A stretch of DNA of 59,725 bases, from positions 1 to 59,725 of the forward strand of contig CAZKWE010000053.1 of NCBI GenBank assembly GCA_964556545.1, read 5' to 3'. Below the pieces are notes generated by a model. The model ran no database searches. It was not told the origin of the DNA and saw only the letters and a program-made list of their open reading frames with translations. The position numbers and the translations under genes are program-made. Position 1 is the stretch's first letter, and every line of letters starts with the position of its first letter. Positions 8,214 through 54,228 of this stretch are shown one piece after another. This DNA is from an uncultured Campylobacteraceae bacterium (lineage in GTDB: Bacteria; Campylobacterota; Campylobacteria; Campylobacterales; JALSKU01).

Positions 8214-9140
8214 TTGAAACCTCCTCACATACCCGTACTTTACAATGAAGTTGTAGAAGTTTTCAGTGATTTAAAAAGCGGATATATTATTGATTGTACA
8301 TTGGGTTATGGTGGACACAGCGAAGCACTTTTAAAGAATTTACCGGATATAAAACTTGTAGGTATAGACCAAGACAGTGAAGCTTTGGAATTTTCAAAAA
8401 AAAGATTGAAGCCTTTTAAAAAGAGGGTTGTATTTGAAAAAGGAAGATTTTCTTCCGTTATAAAAAATCATCTTCATAAAGACATTAAAGGAATTTTAGC
8501 CGATATCGGAGTTTCATCTTTGCAACTTGATAAAAAAGACAGAGGTTTTGGATTTGAGAGCGATATTCTTGATATGAGAATGGATAAAGATCAGATGCTT
8601 AGTGCAAAAGAAGTTGTCAATAACTATTCAAAAGAGCAACTTGAGGAGATATTCAGGGATTATGGGGAGATAAGAGAGTATAAAAAAGTAGCGGATATTA
8701 TAGTCAAATCAAGGCAAAAAAAACCTATTGAAAGTGCAAGAGAATTGGCGAGTCTGATAGAGAAAAATTTTAAAAGAGGCAGAATTCATTCTGCCACCTT
8801 GGTATTTCAAGCTATCAGGATAGAAGTAAATGATGAACTTGGCGAATTGGCAAATTTATTGGAGGGTATAAAAAATGCTTCTCTTGAGCATTGCAAAGTG
8901 GCAATTATAACATTTCATTCTCTTGAAGATAGAATTGTAAAAAGAACTTTTAAAGAGTGGGCTAAAAAGTGTATATGTCCTCCTGATATTTATAGATGTG
9001 AATGCGGAGGAAATCATAATATAGGTAAAATAATTACAAAAAAACCTATAATTGCATCAAAAAATGAGATTAAGGCAAATCCAAGAAGCAGAAGTGCTAA
9101 AATGAGGGTATTTGAGATTGGCAAGATGGAGAAAATTTAG
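8214..9140 (+). CDS. rsmH: 16S rRNA m4C1402 methyltransferase RsmH (MraW), TTG start
   Basis: HIPVL, DCTLGYGGHS, DIGVSSLQLD, FQAIRIEVNDEL, ITFHSLEDRIVK and NPRSRSAKMR. Confidence 0.98.
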   Translation: MKPPHIPVLYNEVVEVFSDLKSGYIIDCTLGYGGHSEALLKNLPDIKLVGIDQDSEALEFSKKRLKPFKKRVVFEKGRFSSVIKNHLHKDIKGILADIGVSSLQLDKKDRGFGFESDILDMRMDKDQMLSAKEVVNNYSKEQLEEIFRDYGEIREYKKVADIIVKSRQKKPIESARELASLIEKNFKRGRIHSATLVFQAIRIEVNDELGELANLLEGIKNASLEHCKVAIITFHSLEDRIVKRTFKEWAKKCICPPDIYRCECGGNHNIGKIITKKPIIASKNEIKANPRSRSAKMRVFEIGKMEKI

Positions 9141-9448
9141 TGTCTGCAAAAGTTAAAGCAAAAAATAAAAAAGCTAAATATATTCTTTTAGATGAAGTAG
9201 AAAAACATAGAAAAAGACATGTTGATAACTTAAGTTTTAAACTATTGCTTGGAGTTTTGTTTGCTATATTTACGGTTTTCTTAATTGTTTTGCCCGATAT
9301 TTATCTAAAAAATCAAATATATTATGAAAGCAGAGATATAGCAAAACTGTACAATGAATATTCGGTTTTAAAAGAGGAAAACAGGGCACTAAAGCAAAAA
9401 CTCGAATATATAAAATTTAAAAATCAAGTGTTAGATACAATATTTTGA
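9140..9448 (+). CDS. FtsL-like bitopic cell division protein
   Basis: Basic N-terminus, single TM segment, C-terminal coiled coil. 1-bp overlap with rsmH, the usual ftsL position. Confidence 0.65.
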   Translation: MSAKVKAKNKKAKYILLDEVEKHRKRHVDNLSFKLLLGVLFAIFTVFLIVLPDIYLKNQIYYESRDIAKLYNEYSVLKEENRALKQKLEYIKFKNQVLDTIF

Positions 9449-12597: not shown

Positions 12598-12876
12598 ATG
12601 TGGCTTGAAGATGATGATATATTTGGCGGAAAACCGGAAGATAAATTTTTTGATATAATTTATAATGCAAACAGAAATTTGGTACAAAACGAACTTGTTG
12701 ATACCGTTTCAAGAACGGCGGCTATGGAGCTTTTGCTTGAAGAAATGTTGGGAGAGGATAAAGATATAGAAGCAATTATTGCAAATTATTACAGCAACAA
12801 TACGGATAAAGTAAATAACAAGATGAATGATCTTTATATACAGATGATGGGAAATATATTAAGTCAAAATGAGTAA
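12598..12876 (+). CDS. Conserved Campylobacterota hypothetical protein (DUF2018-like)
   Basis: DDIFGGKPEDKFFDII..ANRNLV pattern and position upstream of the polyprenyl synthase-hemA block. Confidence 0.65.
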   Translation: MWLEDDDIFGGKPEDKFFDIIYNANRNLVQNELVDTVSRTAAMELLLEEMLGEDKDIEAIIANYYSNNTDKVNNKMNDLYIQMMGNILSQNE

Positions 12877-13312
12877 AATTTTTACCGTTTTTCTTTTTTG
12901 TGTTATACAGTTGTATGCTGCAAAATGGAAATATCAGTATCAATTTATTCTTAAAAAGGACCAAGTGGCAAAAGTTAAAATTTCTTACAGAGATAAAAAA
13001 GTATTTTTAAGAGATGGTGAATTTGATTTTAGATGGACACTCTATAAAAACGGTGCTTTGATAACACATAGTGTGTATCAAAAAGTTGAGCATCAGTATG
13101 TTTTGTACCAAACACACAGACTTGATAGTTTTGAAATTGAGCTTGTACCTATGGGTGTAAATATATCAAACAGGATATATCTGTTGGTTGTATTTGAATC
13201 ATTTGATAAAAAAAATAAAACCGCAACTATTGATATGTTTATTAAAGATGATAATGTTAAGATTTTGGCTGATTTTATAGATTTAAACAATAAGGGAATA
13301 AATGTTAAATAA
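12869..13312 (+). CDS. Exported beta-rich hypothetical protein
   Basis: Signal peptide MSKIFTVFLFCVIQLYA, FRWTLY motif, overlaps both neighbours (operonic). Confidence 0.7.
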   Translation: MSKIFTVFLFCVIQLYAAKWKYQYQFILKKDQVAKVKISYRDKKVFLRDGEFDFRWTLYKNGALITHSVYQKVEHQYVLYQTHRLDSFEIELVPMGVNISNRIYLLVVFESFDKKNKTATIDMFIKDDNVKILADFIDLNNKGINVK

Positions 13313-23746: not shown

Positions 23747-24109
23747 TTGAAGATATCTATAATGTGTGATTCTTTGCTGTTGCAAAACAGTTTGGAAATT
23801 TTTTTAAGAGAGTATTTATCATCATACAAACAGTGTGAACTGGTGCTTAGTGATAAAAAGAGAGATTTGCAAAAACCCGTTATTGTTATAAATTCATCAA
23901 ATGACTCAGATATCAAAATACCATTTTCCAAATCATCATTGCTATTGGGGCTTCAAGAACTTTATAGATTAAAATATCCGGCAAAAGATAATAAAAATAA
24001 AAATATAAAAAAAGACAAACTTTGGAAATTGGAAAGAAAGATAGACAAATTGACACTTCAGTTTAGAGAAAATCTTATACAAACCATCAGGGATTTTTAT
24101 GAGGAATAA
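23747..24109 (+). CDS. Conserved Campylobacterota hypothetical protein upstream of rsmD
   Basis: 120-aa ORF, C-terminal coiled coil, overlaps the rsmD start. Confidence 0.75.
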   Translation: MKISIMCDSLLLQNSLEIFLREYLSSYKQCELVLSDKKRDLQKPVIVINSSNDSDIKIPFSKSSLLLGLQELYRLKYPAKDNKNKNIKKDKLWKLERKIDKLTLQFRENLIQTIRDFYEE

Positions 24110-24730: not shown

Positions 24731-27700
24731 TTATTTGATTGACCAGAATCTTCCTCCTATTGTCTTTTCAATCTCAACTTTTCCATTTTTAACCGAAACT
24801 TCTTCCTGCACAGATGATTTCTCTTCGTGTGTAATGTCATCATCATATATCTCGGCAATTATATTTAGATTATAAGATACTTTGTATTTGCCATTTCCTT
24901 CAGGCTGTATATTTAATCCTGAAATTTTATACTCTATCTCATCAAAAACTCTAAAAGTTCTATTTAGATTATCTTCCAAATCAGATATATCTCCACCGGC
25001 ATATGACCAATCAGGAGAAAGAAAACTAACTACTCTACTCTCATCTTTTGACTCATAAGCCTCTTTAAAAGCTCTGTAAAAATCTTCTATTTTACGCTTG
25101 TCCTCTTCAGATAGACGGGAGGAGAGTCTTATATTTTTATTTATAGTAGGTTTTGCAACGGTTGATTTGCCAATCGAAATAGTAATAGCAGCATGAGTCA
25201 ATTTTGAATTTGCTTCAGGGTGCTGAAACCACACAATCCCTGCTTTGTGCTCCTTGTTGTATAGTTTTTTAATCCCAAATCCAAATTTTTTCAAGAGAGC
25301 TTCCGCCTCTTTTTCAGTTTTTCCGACAACAGATGGTACTTTGTCTAACAATTTATAAACATATAGAGTGACAGTTGATCCGTTTTTTACTTTTGTCTTG
25401 TACGGAGGAACTGTCTTTTGTACCACTCCGTTTAAGGTAGAGAGGGCTGTATGTACATTCACTATCTTATAGTTCAAATTCTTTACATATTTTTTAAGCA
25501 AATCTATAGCTTTGCTTTTTGATATGCCAGTCAATTTTGGCACGGTTACAAGATTTGAATACTTATATACCGTGATATTTACTGTTGAATTTGGTTTTGC
25601 TTCTACCCCGGATTTTGGAGTTTGGGATTTGACTTTGTTATTTAAATTTTTATTGTCTGTTATATAGTATGTCACTCTCTCTTTAAAACCGTTTTTTCGG
25701 ATGATTTTTATGGCCGTATCTTTACTAATTGCAACAACAGAAGGCACCAAAGAGTGCAGAGAATAAACCGAAAATGTAACTATCGAACCCCTCTTGACGA
25801 TAGTTCCCCAAGGAGGAGTTGAGCCTGGTTTAATCTTTCCGTTTAAGCTTGAAAATTTTGTACTCTCGTAGATAACTTTTGGTATGAGACCGGCATCTTT
25901 TATCTTTTTAATGGTTGCATCAACTGTTGTTGCAAGTGCCGGAACTTTGACTATATCTGATTTTGTGGGTGGATTTTTTTTGACATTTTCCGGTAGTTTT
26001 TGATTTGGTTTCAATTTAACAGTTAAAAATATCGTACTGTCATATCCATACTGACATCTGCTACCTCCTCTAGGAGATGTTGCTATCACGGTTCCAGCCG
26101 GTAAAGATGTGACATGTTTAACATACGACGAAGCCTCGCTTTCAAATCGTATATCTCTAAATCCTTTCTTTACTAAAATACTCTTTGCAATCTCAGGAGT
26201 AGCACCTAATACACTTGGCATTATCGGCATCTCTTGAGCATTTATGTCTGCTACAAGCAGTGTCATTCTCTCTGATTTACTTCTCACAACACCTATGGCA
26301 GGATCATCCATCTGCCCCAACACATCCAATACAGTTCCATCAATTGCACCTATCTTTTTCTCTTTTTTGACCGTAACATTTGTAAAGCCCAATTCTTTCA
26401 TCTCTTTTCTGGCATCTTTTATGGTTTTTCCACGAATATCAGGAGGTACGATGGCTTCATCCGATCTCATTTTTGGTATATAGACTTTTTTTCGGCAAAA
26501 AAGCTTGACTGTTTGAAATGTTTTGATCTTGCTTCCCCAAGCAGGATCTGATCGAACAAGTATATTTCCCTCTTTATATGATCTGTTTTCTACCTTCTCT
26601 GTTTTAAAATAGACCTTTCCTAATCTTGCTTTTAGTTTTTCAATATCTTTGTTTATGCCATCGCACTTTCTATTTTCCCAGTTTGGCAATATAGTCTCTT
26701 TTAGTTTTATCGTCGCTATCTTTACTTCAGAACCAGGAGCTATACAACTTATCTTCTCATCAAGAACTTTACCCTCTGCTATCTTATAAACAGATTTGTG
26801 ATTTTTTATATAATTCAATACATCCACATAGACAACTTTTGGTTTAAAACCGGCTCTCTTTAGTTTTGTGAGAGCATTGTTTATATCTTGATTTTTAACA
26901 TTTGGAGGATAGATACATTTTATAAGTTTGTAAACTTTTACATGTACTTTGGTAGGTCGAAACAGTATAGTTCCCGCTTTGACATCTTGATAATAAATTT
27001 TACCATCAAGTTTTCTGTTTTTTGCATTTTCTGCTATCTTTTTATAGGTTGGAGTTATGATGAGATATCTGTTTTGCTTAGCCTTTTGTAAACTCCACCC
27101 CTTGGTTAAATCAGGCATTTTAATCTTTGGAAAAGCATAAATCTGCACACCTATATATCTTGGTTTTTTGATTAAAGAGCCAGCCTTTATGCTTTGAGAA
27201 AATATCTTTCCATAGAGTTTAGGATTGGTTGTTTTTTTATATATATCTTGAATATATCCTATGGGAAGTTTGTATTTTTTTATCTTCGCCTTCGCTTCTT
27301 CTAATGTTAGCCCTTTAAGGTTTACCATTTTTTTTATCGGACCGGCATATTTATAAACATATAGTGTCAAAAGCACATTTCCATTTGCATCATACAAAGT
27401 GCTGCCACTTGAAGCATAACTTCTGTTTTTGCTTGGACCTTGCACCCATACTCTTTTTGTTTTTGAGCCAGAAAAAGAGGGAACAGTAATAGTTTCATAA
27501 TGCCCGTAAGAACTATCGTGTGTACTGCCTCCAGCAGAAGCAGGTGAACCTTTTGCAACGATAGTTTGTCCAGGATTTATGCTTTGTTTATAGATTCTGT
27601 TATATTTATCTGATGTAGTTGGAGTGTATAAAATCTTCAATGATATATTGGAATTTTTTAACTCTTTTTTTACTTCATCTATCCCTTTGCCTATAAAATC

Positions 27701-27961
27701 TTTCATGCGAAAGCTGTTGTACCAAACCGCATATACAACTCTATTTGAGATATGTATCTCATCTATCTTGTCAAATTGTGATATGTTTCTTGCGGGTCGA
27801 TATCTAAATCTAACACGAAAATGCATCTGATTCGCTTTGTTTATCAACTCTCGACCGCTTTTAAGGCTACCAAAAGGATTATATGCTGCCAAACTGTTTG
27901 TCGTTATCACCAATAGCAAAGCGATCATTGCCAACCATATGTGCTTAATTAAAATTTTCAT
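24731..27961 (-). CDS. Secreted poly-PASTA protein (~11-12 repeats) with C-terminal NTF2-like domain
   Basis: Sec signal peptide (ITTNSLA|A). Repeated ~65-70-aa units such as VPSVVGKTEKEAEALLKKFGF...GIVWFQHPEANSKL...ITISIG and VPKLTGISKSKAIDLL...GVVQKTVPPYKTKVKNGSTVTLYVY. Final ~125 aa has a helix-helix-beta-sheet NTF2/SnoaL pattern. AGGA RBS upstream. Confidence 0.85.
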   Translation of the reverse strand: MKILIKHIWLAMIALLLVITTNSLAAYNPFGSLKSGRELINKANQMHFRVRFRYRPARNISQFDKIDEIHISNRVVYAVWYNSFRMKDFIGKGIDEVKKELKNSNISLKILYTPTTSDKYNRIYKQSINPGQTIVAKGSPASAGGSTHDSSYGHYETITVPSFSGSKTKRVWVQGPSKNRSYASSGSTLYDANGNVLLTLYVYKYAGPIKKMVNLKGLTLEEAKAKIKKYKLPIGYIQDIYKKTTNPKLYGKIFSQSIKAGSLIKKPRYIGVQIYAFPKIKMPDLTKGWSLQKAKQNRYLIITPTYKKIAENAKNRKLDGKIYYQDVKAGTILFRPTKVHVKVYKLIKCIYPPNVKNQDINNALTKLKRAGFKPKVVYVDVLNYIKNHKSVYKIAEGKVLDEKISCIAPGSEVKIATIKLKETILPNWENRKCDGINKDIEKLKARLGKVYFKTEKVENRSYKEGNILVRSDPAWGSKIKTFQTVKLFCRKKVYIPKMRSDEAIVPPDIRGKTIKDARKEMKELGFTNVTVKKEKKIGAIDGTVLDVLGQMDDPAIGVVRSKSERMTLLVADINAQEMPIMPSVLGATPEIAKSILVKKGFRDIRFESEASSYVKHVTSLPAGTVIATSPRGGSRCQYGYDSTIFLTVKLKPNQKLPENVKKNPPTKSDIVKVPALATTVDATIKKIKDAGLIPKVIYESTKFSSLNGKIKPGSTPPWGTIVKRGSIVTFSVYSLHSLVPSVVAISKDTAIKIIRKNGFKERVTYYITDNKNLNNKVKSQTPKSGVEAKPNSTVNITVYKYSNLVTVPKLTGISKSKAIDLLKKYVKNLNYKIVNVHTALSTLNGVVQKTVPPYKTKVKNGSTVTLYVYKLLDKVPSVVGKTEKEAEALLKKFGFGIKKLYNKEHKAGIVWFQHPEANSKLTHAAITISIGKSTVAKPTINKNIRLSSRLSEEDKRKIEDFYRAFKEAYESKDESRVVSFLSPDWSYAGGDISDLEDNLNRTFRVFDEIEYKISGLNIQPEGNGKYKVSYNLNIIAEIYDDDITHEEKSSVQEEVSVKNGKVEIEKTIGGRFWSIK
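25167..27715 (-). repeat. Array of 11 diverged PASTA-domain repeats (plus one degenerate unit at ~27716-27886)
   Basis: Each unit shows [VM]P-x-[LV]-x-G-x-[ST]-x-x-x-A, then (G)-x-[VI]-x-x-[QT]-x-P-x-x-G, then a terminal [VI]-x-[LIF]-x-[VI]-Y strand. I saw no long DNA-level identity between units. Confidence 0.8.
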
Positions 27962-27996: not shown

Positions 27997-29349
27997 TTAA
28001 AAATCCAAACCCCCATCAGAACGATATTTATAATCACATGTTACACTAGTATGTAGTCCCCCTGAAGTATCCGTGGTTGTAGTGCTACTAATATTTTTTA
28101 CTATGGCATAGGTATTGTTTGGTAATTTTACGGCATACACATGATCGTCATTATTTGTTGCTGCCACAGGTTGGGTGTCATAACCGGTTGTAGGAACACT
28201 CATATGGCTAAAATTTACATTCCCTGATCCATCAACTCCCAAATCTTGAATTTGGGCTCCAGAGTCCGGCCAAAAAACATTTCCTTCCAAAAAGATATCA
28301 GATGTTCCCATATCAAAATTTGAAATATCTACGATAGTTCCGCTATCAAATATAAATCCTTTATGTTGATTTCCTCCACTTGGTAAATCATCATATGATA
28401 AAGTGAATGAGCCACTTTCTATGTTATCATCTCCACTGTTTGTCGTATTGTTTATTATGTCAGCTATACTTTTTTCACTTATATCTCCAGAATTATTAAC
28501 TGTTATAAGTTTTTCATTGGAAACAGATACGACTGAACCATCAGCTACTTCTTGTGCATCACTTAATCCAAAAATAAGAGGATTTTTCATACTATATAAC
28601 ATAGCACCATATTTGCCATCTATAAAACTAAATTCCGTTATACCTTTGTCGCTATAAACCTTTCCATCTTTTGAAGATTCTAATGTCCTGTTAAAACTAA
28701 TACTTACAAGATATTTTCCACCTTGATAAGCTATAGAATTAATGGTAAAATCTATTTGTATATTGTCAAAAACATTAAAATCTTTTCTCAAAGCCAATTC
28801 AAGAGTTGTATCATCCCCGGTAAAATCTTCACTAACATATCTCATAAAACCGGATAAATCTTCATTGGAGTATGAAGTCTTTAAGTGATCAAGAGTGTTT
28901 CTGACTATTTCTTTGTAATTTTTGTTTATTATAGTAATAATTTTATGTGTATCTTCTAAGTCATTAGTTTTGCCAGTTGTGTCAATTATTTGGATATATA
29001 TATTGTATTTTTTGTCAATCTTCGGTTCAAATGAAAAATCAAAAGCACCATCCCTTGTTAATTTTGCTTTTTTCCATGTCTTTTTGCCATCTAATGTAAT
29101 AAGCACTCTTGCTATATTGGAATTTCCTGCATTTGCTTTTCCTCGTATATGAAGATATCCGTTGTCCAAAGAATCTTTTGAAAAGACAATCTCTTTTTTT
29201 GTCGAATCAAAAGATAGAGAGTTGATATATAGATAATTGATATTGACACTACTCTCGTTATGTCCAAAAATCCACCATTTTGCATTTGCATTAGTAAATA
29301 CAAGAAATAACAATAACGGAAATAATAATATTTTAAATCTATTTTTCAT
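27997..29349 (-). CDS. Secreted three-domain protein: Ig-like + NTF2-like + HmuY-like C-terminal domain
   Basis: Signal peptide (FTNANA|KWWIFG). Ig-like segment IRGKA..RVLITLDGKKTWKKAKL..FDFSF..IIDTTGK. NTF2-like middle domain. C-terminus HVYAVKLPNNTYAIVK...VTCDYKYRSDGGLDF. AAGGAG RBS overlapping the upstream stop. Confidence 0.75.
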   Translation of the reverse strand: MKNRFKILLFPLLLFLVFTNANAKWWIFGHNESSVNINYLYINSLSFDSTKKEIVFSKDSLDNGYLHIRGKANAGNSNIARVLITLDGKKTWKKAKLTRDGAFDFSFEPKIDKKYNIYIQIIDTTGKTNDLEDTHKIITIINKNYKEIVRNTLDHLKTSYSNEDLSGFMRYVSEDFTGDDTTLELALRKDFNVFDNIQIDFTINSIAYQGGKYLVSISFNRTLESSKDGKVYSDKGITEFSFIDGKYGAMLYSMKNPLIFGLSDAQEVADGSVVSVSNEKLITVNNSGDISEKSIADIINNTTNSGDDNIESGSFTLSYDDLPSGGNQHKGFIFDSGTIVDISNFDMGTSDIFLEGNVFWPDSGAQIQDLGVDGSGNVNFSHMSVPTTGYDTQPVAATNNDDHVYAVKLPNNTYAIVKNISSTTTTDTSGGLHTSVTCDYKYRSDGGLDF

Positions 29350-29359
29350 TTTAAACTCC

Positions 29360-30964
29360 TTAAAATCTTATCCTAACACCTAAAATGGTGCCCCTCTCTC
29401 TAAAATTTTTTGTATTTGTCGTATATGTGAAATCATTGTAAAATGCTCTAGCATAGATCATAACTCTCTTAAATGAGAAAAATATTTTAGGTCTGTAATA
29501 AATATTAAGGTTCAAAAAAACTTTTTTGCTATCGTCGCTTAGATCTCTATCGGATTTATTTTCTCCAATCTTTAATTTACCGGATAATCTATATTTCATA
29601 ACATCCACACCTAAACCAATCGATGCCTCATAATATTTATCAAGAGAACTCTTTAATTCATCTTTGTTAGATCGAGAACCTATATATAAAGAGGGCTTAA
29701 AAATATAATCTTTCTTTCTAATTTTACCGTTAAATTGTGTATTAATCCTGAATTCATGACTATCTTGAATATTTCCATCTGTTTTATAGCTATAATATGA
29801 AATATTTGTTGTATTGTAAATTTTTGCAAATCTGTCACTCATAGAAAAGTCTATGATATGATTTGTTATATTATTTGTGGTATCTGTTATATCTAACTTA
29901 TAGGTTAGATCAATAGTATTATGTCTTCTACCAAAAGCTTTTTTGTATGTTATTCCGATACTGGGTCTATACACATCTTTTCTATCGATTAATTGTCCGT
30001 CCAAGTCATTTCTATACCATAAAAAACCTATATGTGTTACAATCTTTTTTGTAGCTTTATATCTCCAAGAAGTTTTAAACTTTTCTCTATCCGGAGTTGC
30101 CGAACCTGTTAATGTAATATAATAAGGTGAAACTCTTTCATACTCCACCAAAACTCTACTTGGATTTTTATTTCCGATTGCTCTTATTTTAAAAGCATTG
30201 CCGCTAAAATTTTCATTTGCAGTTGTATCAGAAGTATTTTTCGTGTTATTTGAATGGGAAAATTCACTATAAATATCTAAGTCCGGTATGGGTATATAAT
30301 TTATATCCATAGTATATAGATGATTATTGTATAACGGAACACCTCCAAATATTCTATCTTTATCGTTAGAATAGACAAAACTTACACCTATATCCATTTT
30401 GCCATCCAAAATTTTCCTTCTGTACCTAGTTCCATAGACACTTCTTTTTATTGCTTTTGTTTTGTTGTCCCAAAAGCTATCCCATCTTGGATATGCTATA
30501 CCATAAACTATTTGTAGTTGATTTGTAATGTCTTTACTAAGATATCTATAGGATACACCCTTTAAAGCTGTATTTAAAGAGTATTGAGAAAAAGATTCAA
30601 ATACATCTCCAACTCTAAATGTATTTATTTTATTTTTAAGGGTAATTTGCATATTTGTAATAGAAATATCTTTAGGATCCTTTTTTCTATTATCTGTTGC
30701 CTTTAAACCTAAATTTATAATATATTTATATTTTTTAAGTTTACCTTTTTTGTAATAATTAAAAATATTGAAATATCTTAATCCATCCACAAGAGAAGAG
30801 TTTTTTTTGCCGGGACCGGTTATATCATTGTATTGAAGATAAAAATCATTCTTGATGGCAACTTTATCTAAATCTGAAGAAAATAATGTTAAACTTATAG
30901 GGAATATAGCTACGAAAAAAGAAAATAAAAACTTTCTATAAGATAAAAAAGATAAAAATTTCAT
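29360..30964 (-). CDS. Outer-membrane beta-barrel protein of unknown family
   Basis: Signal peptide, then alternating aromatic/hydrophobic strands along the whole chain, and a C-terminal Phe (GVRIRF) typical of BAM substrates. ATG 30964 has an AAGG RBS; the ORF extends to TTG 30982. Confidence 0.8.
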   Translation of the reverse strand: MKFLSFLSYRKFLFSFFVAIFPISLTLFSSDLDKVAIKNDFYLQYNDITGPGKKNSSLVDGLRYFNIFNYYKKGKLKKYKYIINLGLKATDNRKKDPKDISITNMQITLKNKINTFRVGDVFESFSQYSLNTALKGVSYRYLSKDITNQLQIVYGIAYPRWDSFWDNKTKAIKRSVYGTRYRRKILDGKMDIGVSFVYSNDKDRIFGGVPLYNNHLYTMDINYIPIPDLDIYSEFSHSNNTKNTSDTTANENFSGNAFKIRAIGNKNPSRVLVEYERVSPYYITLTGSATPDREKFKTSWRYKATKKIVTHIGFLWYRNDLDGQLIDRKDVYRPSIGITYKKAFGRRHNTIDLTYKLDITDTTNNITNHIIDFSMSDRFAKIYNTTNISYYSYKTDGNIQDSHEFRINTQFNGKIRKKDYIFKPSLYIGSRSNKDELKSSLDKYYEASIGLGVDVMKYRLSGKLKIGENKSDRDLSDDSKKVFLNLNIYYRPKIFFSFKRVMIYARAFYNDFTYTTNTKNFRERGTILGVRIRF

Positions 30965-31076
30965 AATCAAACCTTTTTGCAAAGTTAAAAAAACATAATA
31001 TAGAATCTATATCATAAATAAGATTCAGCTCTTTGTTTTAACTTAATTATTAAAATTAAATTTTTTTACTAAGTTA

Positions 31077-31082
31077 ATTATA
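31077..31082 (-). promoter_or_regulatory. Candidate sigma70 -10 (TATAAT) for the barrel/PASTA operon
   Basis: Perfect TATAAT on the minus strand ~113 nt upstream of ATG 30964. The region is very AT-rich, so specificity is limited. Confidence 0.35.
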
Positions 31083-31128
31083 CTATCATATATTTAAAGA
31101 AAAATAAAATAATAAAACAATTTATTTA

Positions 31129-31163
31129 GAACGGATTTTGCTTTATTGGAACGGATTTTGCTT
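31129..31163 (+). repeat. Tandem direct repeat GAACGGATTTTGCTT x2 (15 bp, 20-bp period)
   Basis: Exact copies at 31129-31143 and 31149-31163. Confidence 0.95.
31146..31163 (+). promoter_or_regulatory. sigma54 (RpoN) promoter for the flgI operon
   Basis: TTGGAACGGATTTTGCTT: GG(31148-9)-N10-GC(31160-1), 40 nt upstream of the flgI TTG. Confidence 0.88.
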
Positions 31164-52320: not shown

Positions 52321-54228
52321 TTGGCTTTTTTTGGTAAAAATAAAGATGAAAACGAAACTTATAGTGATGAGGTAAACTTTCAAAATATTATAATTGATAC
52401 TGAAAATATCAATCAAGAATTAAAAAATATATCCTCTTCTTTGAATATACCTTCAAATCAACTTGATTTTACCATTCTTTCTTTTAAGAGTGTTTTTAAA
52501 ACACATAAAGATGACGAATGGATGGAAATAAACAAATCAAACATAGAACAGTTCAAAGATGAAGATTTTCTTTTAAATGAAGAATTGCAGATAAAACAGC
52601 AATATAAAATAGAAATATTTTTAAAAGACGAAGAAAGCATGCCTTTGCTTGATATTATACTCGGAGGCAATAAATTCCTTACAAAGATTGTTGCTACGGT
52701 AAAGAAAAATTTCGATATAAAATACAGCAGTAAACTAAAAGAGTATATAGTTTCACAAATCAACAAAAGACTTATAAAACAATCAATGCTTATCTCTATA
52801 TTTCAAAGTGAAATGGAAAAAGAGGTTGAAAAGATAGTGGCAAAGATAAGAATTAACAACTTTTTGGATGAAGATCATACATTTGTTGTTTGTAACTGTA
52901 TAGAGCCTATAGCTGCGATAAATGACAAGCTTATTTTTCATTATAAAAAAAATGTCAATAAAAAAGATGAACACGGAAGAATTGATTATTCAAGAAGAGG
53001 ATATATTCATGCAGTCCAAAAGGGCGATATCATTATAGAATATATAAAAGCAAAAGAGGGAAGAAACGGCAGAAACTGCAAAGGCGAACTTTTAAAAGTG
53101 AAAGAGCCTGTGCAAAAATACTCTATTGATTTTAGCGTCAGTGAAAATATAGAAAAGAAAGAGGATGAAAACAGGATAATTTTTGTTGCAAAAAAAGATG
53201 GATATGTAAATAAAGAAGGTGACAAATACGATATCAATGACAATATGGAAATTGAAGAGGTATCCTTTAAAACAACCGGTTCCATAGAAGCAAATCTTGA
53301 ATCAAATGTTAAAATCAATATAAAAGAAAGTGATGTGCTAAAAGATGCCATAGGTCCCGGAATGAGTGTAGAAACTACTGAAATAATAGTGGAGGGCAAT
53401 ATAGGAAGCGGGGCGGTAGTCAAAGCAAAAAAGGTACAAATAGGCGGACAAACTCACAAGAATGCTTCTATATTTGCAGATGAGCTTGATATCAGTGTTC
53501 ACAGAGGATATGCTGAAGGCAAAGATATCAATATCAAAAGACTCGAAGGCGGAAGAGTCAATGCAAAAACTGTAAAAATAGACCAAGCAATAGGCGGAGA
53601 AGTTATAGCAGAAAGAATTTTTATCAAACAATTGGTTTCAAATGTAACTTTGATTGCATCGGAAATTATAGAAATATCCGAATTAAAAGGAACAAACAAT
53701 AAGTTTGTAATAGACCCTACAAGAGTATTGGGTTTTCATGAAAAAATTGATCAGTTGGAAGAAAAGTTAAAAAAGATAGAATCTGTTATAAATATAACTA
53801 AAAAAGCTATAAGAGATAAAAAACTTTTGATTGACAAAAACAAAGAACCAGCCCAACTTGTTAAACAGAAAATTATCGAGCTTAAACAATCCGGTCAAGA
53901 ACCGGCCAAAACACTTATGAAGAAAATCAGAGATTTTCAGCAATTAATTACTGCTTACAATGCACTGCTTGAAAAATATAAAAAATACAAGAATGAAAGA
54001 GAAAGTATAAAAAAAGAGATAGAAGATATACAATCTACCATACTTAAAGCCAAGATTATCAACCGCTCAATTTGGCATGAGTATAATGAGATAAAATTTA
54101 TTTTGCTTTCACCAAAAATTGAGATAACTCATGTGACTAAAGAGGGAGAGATATCAAAAAGTATTACACTCTCTAAAATTGAAGAGAATGAATTTCAAAT
54201 CAATAGAAAAAGCGAGTTTGATATATGA
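52321..54228 (+). CDS. fapA: Flagellar assembly protein A (FapA/DUF342), TTG start
   Basis: GRIDYSRRG, GRNCKG, beta-helix-like IIVEGNIGSGAVVKA..IGGQTH and a C-terminal coiled coil. Confidence 0.8.
   Translation: MAFFGKNKDENETYSDEVNFQNIIIDTENINQELKNISSSLNIPSNQLDFTILSFKSVFKTHKDDEWMEINKSNIEQFKDEDFLLNEELQIKQQYKIEIFLKDEESMPLLDIILGGNKFLTKIVATVKKNFDIKYSSKLKEYIVSQINKRLIKQSMLISIFQSEMEKEVEKIVAKIRINNFLDEDHTFVVCNCIEPIAAINDKLIFHYKKNVNKKDEHGRIDYSRRGYIHAVQKGDIIIEYIKAKEGRNGRNCKGELLKVKEPVQKYSIDFSVSENIEKKEDENRIIFVAKKDGYVNKEGDKYDINDNMEIEEVSFKTTGSIEANLESNVKINIKESDVLKDAIGPGMSVETTEIIVEGNIGSGAVVKAKKVQIGGQTHKNASIFADELDISVHRGYAEGKDINIKRLEGGRVNAKTVKIDQAIGGEVIAERIFIKQLVSNVTLIASEIIEISELKGTNNKFVIDPTRVLGFHEKIDQLEEKLKKIESVINITKKAIRDKKLLIDKNKEPAQLVKQKIIELKQSGQEPAKTLMKKIRDFQQLITAYNALLEKYKKYKNERESIKKEIEDIQSTILKAKIINRSIWHEYNEIKFILLSPKIEITHVTKEGEISKSITLSKIEENEFQINRKSEFDI

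Follow-up and report, generated by a model that had tools for sequence, protein, structure and literature searches.

A secreted PASTA-repeat array with an NTF2-like C-terminal domain, encoded in an operon with a predicted outer-membrane barrel in an uncultured Campylobacteraceae bacterium

PASTA domains are taught as sensors on Gram-positive kinases and penicillin-binding proteins (PBPs). On contig CAZKWE010000053.1 of an uncultured Campylobacteraceae bacterium (assembly GCA_964556545.1; the whole stretch of 59,725 nucleotides is called the window throughout), a gene that we call C encodes a secreted protein of 1076 amino acids with eleven PASTA units, one further degenerate unit and a conserved NTF2-like C-terminal domain (CTD). 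C is the third gene of an operon that starts with a predicted outer-membrane beta-barrel of about 26 strands (gene A) and continues with a second secreted protein (gene B). The order A-B-C recurs in several diderm phyla with exchangeable third genes, and we tentatively regard C as the cargo subunit of a three-gene envelope module.

A previous inspection of the letters and reading frames of this DNA (the sequence-only reading) had described a secreted array of eleven PASTA units and one degenerate unit in a diderm, and this is borne out by Pfam, a family profile, structure prediction, Foldseek and the signal peptide. It had placed the array at 25167-27886, which corresponds to residues 26-932: this correctly runs from the mature N-terminus to the last unit, but misses the signal peptide and the last 144 residues. 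The description of the array as stand-alone does not hold, given the CTD and the position of the gene behind the barrel and B.

Domain structure of the PASTA-array protein

The protein divides as follows, all coordinates being those of the window:

24731-27961 (-): gene C, PASTA-array protein, 1076 amino acids, stop codon at 24731-24733; open reading frame (ORF), Pfam, hidden Markov model (HMM), AlphaFold2 (AF2) and Foldseek
27884-27961 (-): Sec signal peptide of C, residues 1-26, cleavage between SLA and AY, read from the sequence
27707-27883 (-): unit 0, residues 27-85, degenerate PASTA-like module; AF2 topology
27329-27706 (-): PASTA unit 1, residues 86-211, interrupted at 140-192 by a low-complexity insert that varies in length; Pfam and self-HMM
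26489-27328 (-): PASTA units 2-5, residues 212-491, linkers of 0-5 residues; self-HMM, Pfam and AF2
26018-26455 (-): PASTA units 6-7, residues 503-648; Pfam 26.5 and 31.4 bits
25952-26017 (-): Lys/Pro-rich linker ahead of unit 8, residues 649-670
25166-25951 (-): PASTA units 8-11, residues 671-932, the best-scoring units in Pfam and the family HMM
24734-25111 (-): CTD, residues 951-1076, NTF2-like, predicted docking domain; AF2 and Foldseek

The signal peptide (MKILIKHIWLAMIALLLVITTNSLA, followed by AYNPF at the mature N-terminus) is conserved among homologues, and the mature start (A/D/E)YNPF is kept in homologues P0002-P0006. By inspection, no second hydrophobic segment was seen, leaving the signal peptide as the sole one. 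An exact-sequence look-up of the protein returned no record.

The whole protein matches the PASTA family PF03793 with an E-value of 7.4e-69 and 228 bits (cut-off 23.2) over 10 stretches, and in a Foldseek search of its model against the PDB the first 23 matches are all PASTA structures, those of PknB, PrkC, PBP2x and PBP1 coming first (E 3e-11 to 1e-5); the PASTA fold is thus recovered by family profile and by structure. A family HMM built from C's own repeats and five homologues resolves 11 units: unit 1 at residues 86-139 plus 193-206, with a low-complexity insert of about 55 amino acids between the two parts, units 2-6 at 212-278, 281-346, 352-421, 422-491 and 503-570, and units 7-11 at 578-648, 671-735, 736-802, 805-871 and 873-932. 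When nine segments across residues 27-735 were scanned singly with Pfam, four scored above the gathering score (26.5-35.3 bits) and three just under it (19.8-22.2 bits), with residues 87-140 of unit 1 at 33.7 bits. Unit 5 (422-491) had no Pfam match on its own and is called from the family HMM and its AF2 topology only; segment 27-85, corresponding to unit 0, had none either. The three C-terminal units contain both the best Pfam stretch (739-800) and the top family-HMM scores.

An AF2 model of C, computed from an alignment of six sequences, has a mean predicted local distance difference test (pLDDT) of 67 and a predicted template modelling score (pTM) of 0.29. It gives one helix and three strands in every unit except 6, 7 and 11, where confidence is low; in units 2-5 the pLDDT is mostly 70-88, with a minimum of 64-70 near residues 380-410. 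Unit 0 is modelled with a helix at 36-45 and strands at 49-56, 65-72 and 75-85 (pLDDT 74-82): because AF2 returns this pattern and Pfam finds no match, unit 0 has a PASTA-like topology without sequence support, in agreement with the degenerate N-terminal unit proposed earlier. The insert of unit 1 (residues 140-192) is rich in Ser, Gly and Asn, and each homologue has its own length and sequence here; AF2 gives it a low-confidence beta-hairpin with a pLDDT below 50.

The units of C are diverged, with a mean pairwise identity of 22% and a maximum of 40%, and the array is colinear over residues 1-848 with that of a Desulfuromonadaceae protein (MCD4688860.1, annotated as 'PASTA domain-containing protein') that also carries the CTD; both agree with the old expansion suggested in the sequence-only reading. 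Linkers measure 0-5 residues within the two blocks 212-491 and 671-932, and longer ones are found at 492-502, 571-577, 649-670 and 933-950. PASTA rods of PknB are known to be extended, and the proposed rod length of 30-40 nm, extrapolated from them, would be only an upper estimate, because the longer linkers at 492-502, 649-670 and 933-950 break the array.

Conservation was compared per region among eight colinear homologues of C. The most conserved parts are units 0-2, at 46-60% mean identity (unit 0 at 49% and unit 2 at 60%, the highest of all units), and the CTD, at 57%; units 6-7 reach 50%, and the least conserved are units 4, 10 and 11 (22-31%) and the insert (16%). The number of units across homologues ranges from 8 to 16 and changes mainly at the C-proximal end. 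Judged by this pattern, C appears to be built as head, spacer and anchor.

The CTD is acidic (isoelectric point, pI, 4.6) and the PASTA region strongly basic (pI 10.0), such that the two parts have complementary charges. Conserved motifs of the CTD are FKEAYESKD, FDEIEY and HEEKSSVQEE, and GGxxWSIK forms its C-terminus. In the AF2 model it has the composition of an NTF2-like fold, with three helices (952-970, 974-987 and 992-1005) followed by four long strands (1008-1022, 1025-1038, 1043-1058 and 1061-1068), and Foldseek retrieves NTF2-like folds (3hx8, 6p7l, 7sjy, 7o21 and others; E from 2e-4, TMt 0.6-0.69). Matches to the Pfam families YvbJ NTF2, DUF4440 and TcaA 5th domain are weak (E 0.02-0.22), all of them under the gathering scores, and a CTD profile found nothing significant among PDB sequences. 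The same profile has two kinds of match in related loci: the extreme C-terminus of proteins of 945-1316 amino acids that have no PASTA units and no assignable Pfam domain, and an internal stretch, about residues 140-245, of B proteins. Only 29 sequences, all of them short fragments or small proteins, came back from a word-indexed search with the CTD profile. Proteins of 121-245 amino acids that consist of the CTD alone also exist elsewhere, for example a Thermodesulfovibrio protein of 129 amino acids on a 260-kb contig.

The protein contains no transmembrane (TM) anchor, kinase or transpeptidase, as the sequence-only reading had stated. Pfam gives no Pkinase match, and no Transpeptidase or PBP dimer match at E<=1. 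The NCBIfam model NF033483 (PknB_PASTA_kin) reaches 222 bits, far below its cut-off of 450, and the match covers model positions 366-560, that is the PASTA part only. C has neither a Hanks kinase domain nor a TM helix and is not a PASTA Ser/Thr kinase; without a Transpeptidase domain it is not a class B PBP of the PBP2x type either. Loose matches to the SxxK/SxN/KTG pattern, found also in C itself, were dismissed as chance in a Lys/Ser-rich protein.

Long PASTA arrays that lack a kinase are not rare, and in metagenomes they are common. An exhaustive phmmer search with the PASTA region against 1.84 billion representative proteins returned 2197 matches, 21 of them at E<=1e-30. The 150 best of the 2197, together with the window protein and the earlier homologues P0003 and P0004, were examined (n=153): 16 carry the CTD and have 8-16 PASTA units each, apart from two fragments with fewer. 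PASTA-CTD proteins recur in other diderms, and for one of them the IMG label reads 'beta-lactam-binding protein with PASTA domain'. Thirty long multi-PASTA proteins without the CTD were analysed with Pfam: all 30 have PASTA domains, six have a kinase and none has a transpeptidase; one of them, P0158, has 2633 amino acids and 28 Pfam PASTA stretches. Since 24 of these 30 proteins have no kinase, the array alone is not unique, and what sets the window protein apart is that a diderm host, the CTD and an outer-membrane barrel operon come together here. Among the long arrays are metagenomic proteins of 2000-3400 amino acids with 20-35 tandem PASTA units (P0158, P0181, P0210 and others), and a separate group starts with a zinc-ribbon-like CxxC...CxxC region followed by 5-12 PASTA units; no characterisation of either group was found in the literature searched. 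We know of no long kinase-less PASTA array protein that has been studied so far.

The three-gene cassette and its exchangeable cargos

The genes upstream of C, and the region ahead of them, are:

29360-30982 (-): gene A, predicted outer-membrane beta-barrel, about 26 strands; AF2 and Foldseek
27997-29349 (-): gene B, 450 amino acids, with signal peptide, immunoglobulin-like (Ig-like) domain, NTF2-like domain and variable C-terminal domain
30983-31137 (no strand): AT-rich intergenic stretch that separates gene A from the divergent flgI; defined by position only

A, B and C lie on a common strand with gaps of 10 nucleotides (A-B) and 35 nucleotides (B-C). The promoter of the operon is presumably located in the intergenic region 30983-31137; promoter and terminator scans found sites no more numerous than in shuffled sequence.

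The likely true start of gene A is the ATG at 30964, which gives a protein of 534 amino acids with a signal peptide and the C-terminus GVRIRF. Its AF2 model, based on 47 homologues, has a pLDDT of 90.8 and a pTM of 0.79, with 26 strand segments across residues 34-533 and short loops on both sides; no plug, POTRA or other periplasmic domain is present in the model. By Foldseek E-value, its closest structures are the FimD/PapC usher pores (1e-9 to 1e-8, at 8-10% identity), the best TM-score belongs to MtrB (6r2q_B, TMq 0.57), and SlpA and OmpM1 are among the lower-ranked matches. A has no match in Pfam (E<=1), NCBIfam or PDB sequences, and a precomputed PF21620 label on a few of its homologues was not reproduced with a local copy of Pfam. 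There are 192 full-length homologues at about 40% identity from many diderm phyla; the labels of their metagenome-assembled genomes (MAGs) include Nitrospirae, Thermodesulfobacteriota, Syntrophorhabdaceae, Elusimicrobia and others.

B starts with an invariant mature N-terminus, KWWIFG, followed by an Ig-like domain at about residues 30-135 with weak matches to Mo-co_dimer (E 8.7e-5) and Big_13, and by an NTF2-like domain at about residues 141-239 that is homologous to the CTD (E 2e-36 with the CTD HMM). Behind the NTF2-like domain comes the invariant motif MKNPLIFGLSDA and then a variable C-terminal domain: in an alignment of eight B proteins, columns 1-270 are conserved and the part past them is variable, the C-terminal domain differing strongly by taxon. 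Sequence and profile searches of B against the PDB found nothing significant, the best match being that of the C-terminal domain to the Ig-like phage protein Hoc (E 0.005). Solved relatives of A, B or the CTD that are detectable by sequence or profile were not found in the PDB.

We define the cassette as a barrel A of about 530-590 amino acids, a B protein of about 400-490 amino acids with an internal NTF2-like domain and at least one large CTD-ending protein; the window genes at 29360-30982, 27997-29349 and 24731-27961 fit this definition. The A-B-C order is also found in loci L001, L003, L007, L008-L010 and L013, the cargo of L013 being a PASTA protein of 14 units. In L001, L003 and L013, homologues of the PASTA protein with 75%, 42% and 33% identity follow A and B between unrelated flanks. 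A scan of metagenome contigs with the CTD gave 21 loci with a GC content of 0.29-0.68; wherever there is enough flanking sequence, A is followed by B and then by the CTD protein, with L014 (C, C, A, B) as the only order variant. Cassette loci come from Nitrospirota, Desulfobacterota and Elusimicrobia among others, their flanking genes vary between lineages, and L004, L006, L007 and L014 have two or three CTD proteins per cassette. A pattern scan of species-representative genomes yielded one locus, L006, in the Campylobacterales MAG Dive100_bin10.109.

The usual third gene encodes a non-PASTA protein of about 1000-1300 amino acids that has only the CTD in common with C. PASTA cargos are absent from all CTD-selected loci, and PASTA proteins are therefore a minority cargo class. 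Pfam searches with seven non-PASTA cargos and two more B proteins returned only sub-threshold coiled-coil, apolipophorin and phasin-like matches.

Cargo exchange is best seen in L008 and L009, where synteny with the window extends to both sides. The flanking proteins of these loci share 65-94% identity with those of the window, and their A and B share 60% and 51%, respectively. The third gene encodes a protein of 1149 amino acids without PASTA units, of which only the last 128 residues are common with C (54% identity); with the CTD alone in common, the passenger has been replaced and the CTD kept. From these identities, the cassette appears to diverge faster than the surrounding genes. A and B of the window are closer to those of the non-syntenic L001 (73% and 76%) than to those of L008 (L008:9995-16416), a pattern that suggests whole-cassette exchange or accelerated evolution.

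No Pfam or NCBIfam family was found for the architecture of PASTA units plus NTF2-like CTD or for the cassette, and the literature searched (full text) describes neither PASTA proteins in Campylobacterota nor an A-B-C cassette.

Some loci have peculiarities of their own. L018 and L021, both low-GC metagenome cassettes, have an extra ORF of 171-175 amino acids between A and B that is barely more than an NTF2-like domain (L018:4383-4910, L021:3339-3854). In L006, the cassette has two non-PASTA cargos, and gene A is split into ORFs of 213 and 314 amino acids (L006:1839-3427), either as a pseudogene or through an assembly error. L001, the closest homologous contig, has a second, diverged pair of genes about 4 kb downstream of its PASTA cassette (L001:17476-23216): an NTF2-like B-type protein of 276 amino acids and an A-like barrel of 524 amino acids, followed by a FecR/DUF6603 protein of 2932 amino acids. 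Together they could form a related barrel system that serves a different giant cargo.

The diderm nature of the host is indicated within the window by flgI (flagellar P-ring), by PpiD/SurA-like and RND genes and by barrel A itself, and the DapA protein of the window matches a protein of a Campylobacterota MAG at 90% identity or more. Pfam and NCBIfam searches with the neighbours of C and all unclear ORFs of the 59.7-kb window found no kinase and no PBP, as claimed in the sequence-only reading, and none of 289 ORFs, taken from the window and from its Campylobacterales relatives, has the Hanks catalytic-loop motif. Other ORFs of the window, assigned by eye, are ftsZ, ftsA, bioA, rsmH, an RND pump, hemA, proS, hemC, gatB, murJ, cysS, ddl, murF and others. 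Four further ORFs on the plus strand caught our attention. The one at 23747-24109 (120 amino acids, no family match) overlaps the start of rsmD and has a counterpart with 57% identity at the equal position in L008. The one at 12869-13312 (147 amino acids) has a signal-peptide-like N-terminus and no Pfam match. A protein of 102 amino acids with a single hydrophobic N-terminal segment and no Pfam match (9140-9448) is encoded directly after rsmH, the position expected for ftsL. Finally, a FapA_N protein (flagellar assembly protein A) of 635 amino acids is encoded at 52321-54228 beside ruvA, far from the flagellar genes.

Possible roles of the array in the cell envelope

We are fairly confident that the CTD of C docks onto a complex of A and B, as suggested by the tight operon, by the conservation of the A-B-C order despite varying flanks and by the presence of the CTD in the cargos as well as in B. 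Where the PASTA rod is placed relative to the outer membrane is a more difficult question. The sequence-only reading had offered two functions, a tether or ruler that spans the periplasm and a projection from the cell surface, and both are possible. Our own preference is tentative: that C is the cargo subunit of a three-gene envelope module, with a periplasmic rod that connects the outer membrane to the cell wall, is the account we find most plausible, and a periplasmic position of the rod is slightly favoured over one at the surface, by a small margin.

As a periplasmic connector, C would be exported via Sec, as its signal peptide suggests. LptE fills LptD and MtrA fills MtrB; barrel A, given its size, would likewise be filled by a partner, and the conserved N-terminal part of B together with its NTF2-like domain may occupy or cap the barrel, with the variable C-terminal domain of B facing outwards. 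The CTD of C would dock on A/B, probably by pairing of NTF2-like domains, and the basic PASTA rod would reach into the periplasm from the inner side of the outer membrane. Head units 0-2 could then bind stem peptides of peptidoglycan or lipid II, the middle and C-proximal PASTA units would be a spacer of variable length, and the net effect would be a non-covalent connector between outer membrane and cell wall. To our knowledge, the host lineage has no Braun's lipoprotein.

We prefer the periplasm because the known PASTA ligands are found there, because the cassette has neither a translocation accessory nor an energy source, and because the arrangement parallels the logic of OmpM/SlpA, with barrel, stalk and wall-binding module, in bacteria without Braun's lipoprotein. 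The ligands in question, as far as they are described in Mir et al. 2011 (PMC3145798), are muropeptides and lipid II, which in a diderm are located in the periplasm.

Several observations weigh against this account. Some PASTA-CTD genes (L005 and L012) are orphans without adjacent A and B, and a two-fold variation in unit number is odd for a ruler of fixed length. Not all PASTA domains bind peptidoglycan, and we know of no established sequence signature for PASTA ligand binding. The extension and length of the rod are unproven, since the whole-chain model is weak. Furthermore, the ushers and MtrB, which have the folds nearest to A, link the periplasm to the cell surface, and three features of the cassette would fit surface-exposed proteins at least as well: a cargo that has been swapped at one locus, multiple cargo paralogues in L004, L006, L007 and L014, and the divergence of A and B (60% and 51%) beyond that of their neighbours (65-94%).

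These last points are the strength of the principal alternative, namely that A and B export and anchor C at the cell surface and the CTD is a sorting or anchor signal, by a logic comparable to that of the type IX CTD or of usher-mediated secretion. PASTA modules would be threaded outwards one by one, and the product would be an adhesin of head, stalk and anchor for foreign peptidoglycan, released muropeptides or another polymer. The conserved distal head, variable stalk and conserved anchor of C do resemble known surface adhesins, and the variability of the C-terminal domain of B points in the same direction. What speaks against display is the machinery and the cargo: A has no periplasmic recruitment domains, no plug and no POTRA domain, the cassette encodes no chaperone or energy source, and most cargos, with about 1000-1300 amino acids, no recognisable domain and a largely alpha-helical appearance by eye, are of a kind not described for export through a barrel alone. 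The known PASTA ligands, too, are periplasmic in a diderm. All in all, we consider surface display nearly as likely as the periplasmic connector.

It is unlikely that C is instead a free periplasmic binder, such as a muropeptide buffer, a scaffold or a regulator of cell-wall enzymes, with a CTD for oligomerisation or ligand binding and a gene order that reflects co-regulation only. The orphan genes in L005 and L012 and the small CTD-only proteins would fit such a role, and NTF2-like domains are known from PBP5 and from wall enzymes of the periplasm such as Bd1075, both found among the Foldseek matches. A free binder would, however, not be expected from an A-B-C order that is consistent across phyla and across GC contents of 0.29-0.68 while the flanks vary, from the CTD-type domain embedded in B, or from the CTD being the only element that is retained when the cargo is exchanged.

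We regard it as very unlikely that C is the ligand-binding half of an ordinary PASTA sensor in two pieces, with its Ser/Thr kinase or PBP encoded in another part of the genome. The PASTA units do resemble those of PknB-type kinases, and our data cover a 59.7-kb window of the genome; however, neither this window nor the flanking regions of seven Campylobacterales loci contain a kinase or PBP, C has no TM segment that could place it beside a membrane kinase, the genes conserved next to it encode an outer-membrane barrel and B rather than a kinase, and the CTD of its relatives carries non-PASTA cargo. Most improbable of all is a periplasmic scaffold of the Campylobacterota flagellar motor built by the cassette, which lies between the flgI-flgK operon and flaG-fliD-fliS in the window: flagellar flanks are confined to the window and its closest relatives L008 and L009, and the neighbours in L001, L003, L007, L010, L013 and the metagenome loci are non-flagellar, and we have rejected this role.

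More generally, it is quite possible, though far from assured, that the A-B-C cassette represents an undescribed and phylogenetically broad class of outer-membrane machinery in which a plug-less barrel and an adaptor recognise the CTD and export or anchor interchangeable giant cargos, with PASTA rods as one cargo class. If so, these would be the first peptidoglycan-binding PASTA arrays with a shown role in a diderm envelope. A long PASTA rod would be tied to an outer-membrane barrel in diderms, both in Campylobacterota and in the Desulfuromonadaceae homologue with the same CTD. A rod that binds the wall from an outer-membrane anchor would be a new solution to tethering without Braun's lipoprotein, and a rod displayed outside would be a new kind of adhesin. 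Either way, there is a widespread three-gene system of giant barrel, adaptor and portable NTF2-like domain with cargos of about 1000 amino acids or more, and its signal domain and large pore could serve surface display.

Comparison with known systems

A defence system and a phage origin were rejected: in PADLOC, A, B and two non-PASTA cargos have no match and C matches the PD-T4-6 kinase models through their PASTA tail alone, and the search of viral contigs yielded no relative of A or of the CTD.

The closest structural relatives of the array are the extracytoplasmic rods of PknB, PrkC and StkP (5e12, 2kui, 3py9, 3m9g; Foldseek E 3e-11 to 1e-8), which share with C the PASTA fold and the tandem arrangement with short linkers and whose presumed ligands are peptidoglycan fragments or lipid II. 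The kinases have three to four PASTA units behind an N-terminal kinase domain and a TM helix; C has 11-12 units and neither of the two, and also differs in its NTF2-like end, its diderm host and its operon with an outer-membrane barrel. PBP2x and S. aureus PBP1 have the same fold (E 3e-6 to 1e-4), but these class B PBPs combine two compact PASTA units with a transpeptidase, whereas C is a long array without one. The long arrays from metagenomes, for example P0158, are like C in their signal peptide, their many tandem PASTA units and the absence of kinase and PBP domains, and unlike it in having no CTD.

For A and B, the nearest functional parallels are LptD-LptE and MtrB-MtrA(-MtrC), where a barrel of about 26 strands with a lumen that needs filling has a separate partner encoded in the operon. 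MtrB is only 8% identical to A and the profile search was empty; CXXCH haem motifs number zero in A, B, C and the related cargos, which sets the cassette apart from the porin-cytochrome systems (MtrCAB/Pcc). Unlike LptD-LptE, the cassette has no N-terminal jellyroll and no lipoprotein partner, and its partners are NTF2-like. The ushers FimD and PapC, with the best Foldseek E-values to A, are likewise large barrels and pass small folded domains, but they have 24 strands, a plug, one domain at the N-terminus and two at the C-terminus, and they depend on a PapD-like chaperone. The cassette shows none of these extras, and A, B and C have no usher, PapD or fimbrial Pfam matches, which argues against a chaperone-usher system.

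OmpM and SlpA offer a functional analogy to the arrangement proposed here for the cassette. In these proteins, barrel, coiled-coil stalk and SLH domain are parts of one polypeptide that binds a pyruvylated polymer or polyaminated wall; in the cassette, the parts would be separate proteins joined via the NTF2-like domain, and there is no SLH domain. Common to both would be an outer-membrane barrel, an elongated stalk and a wall-binding module.

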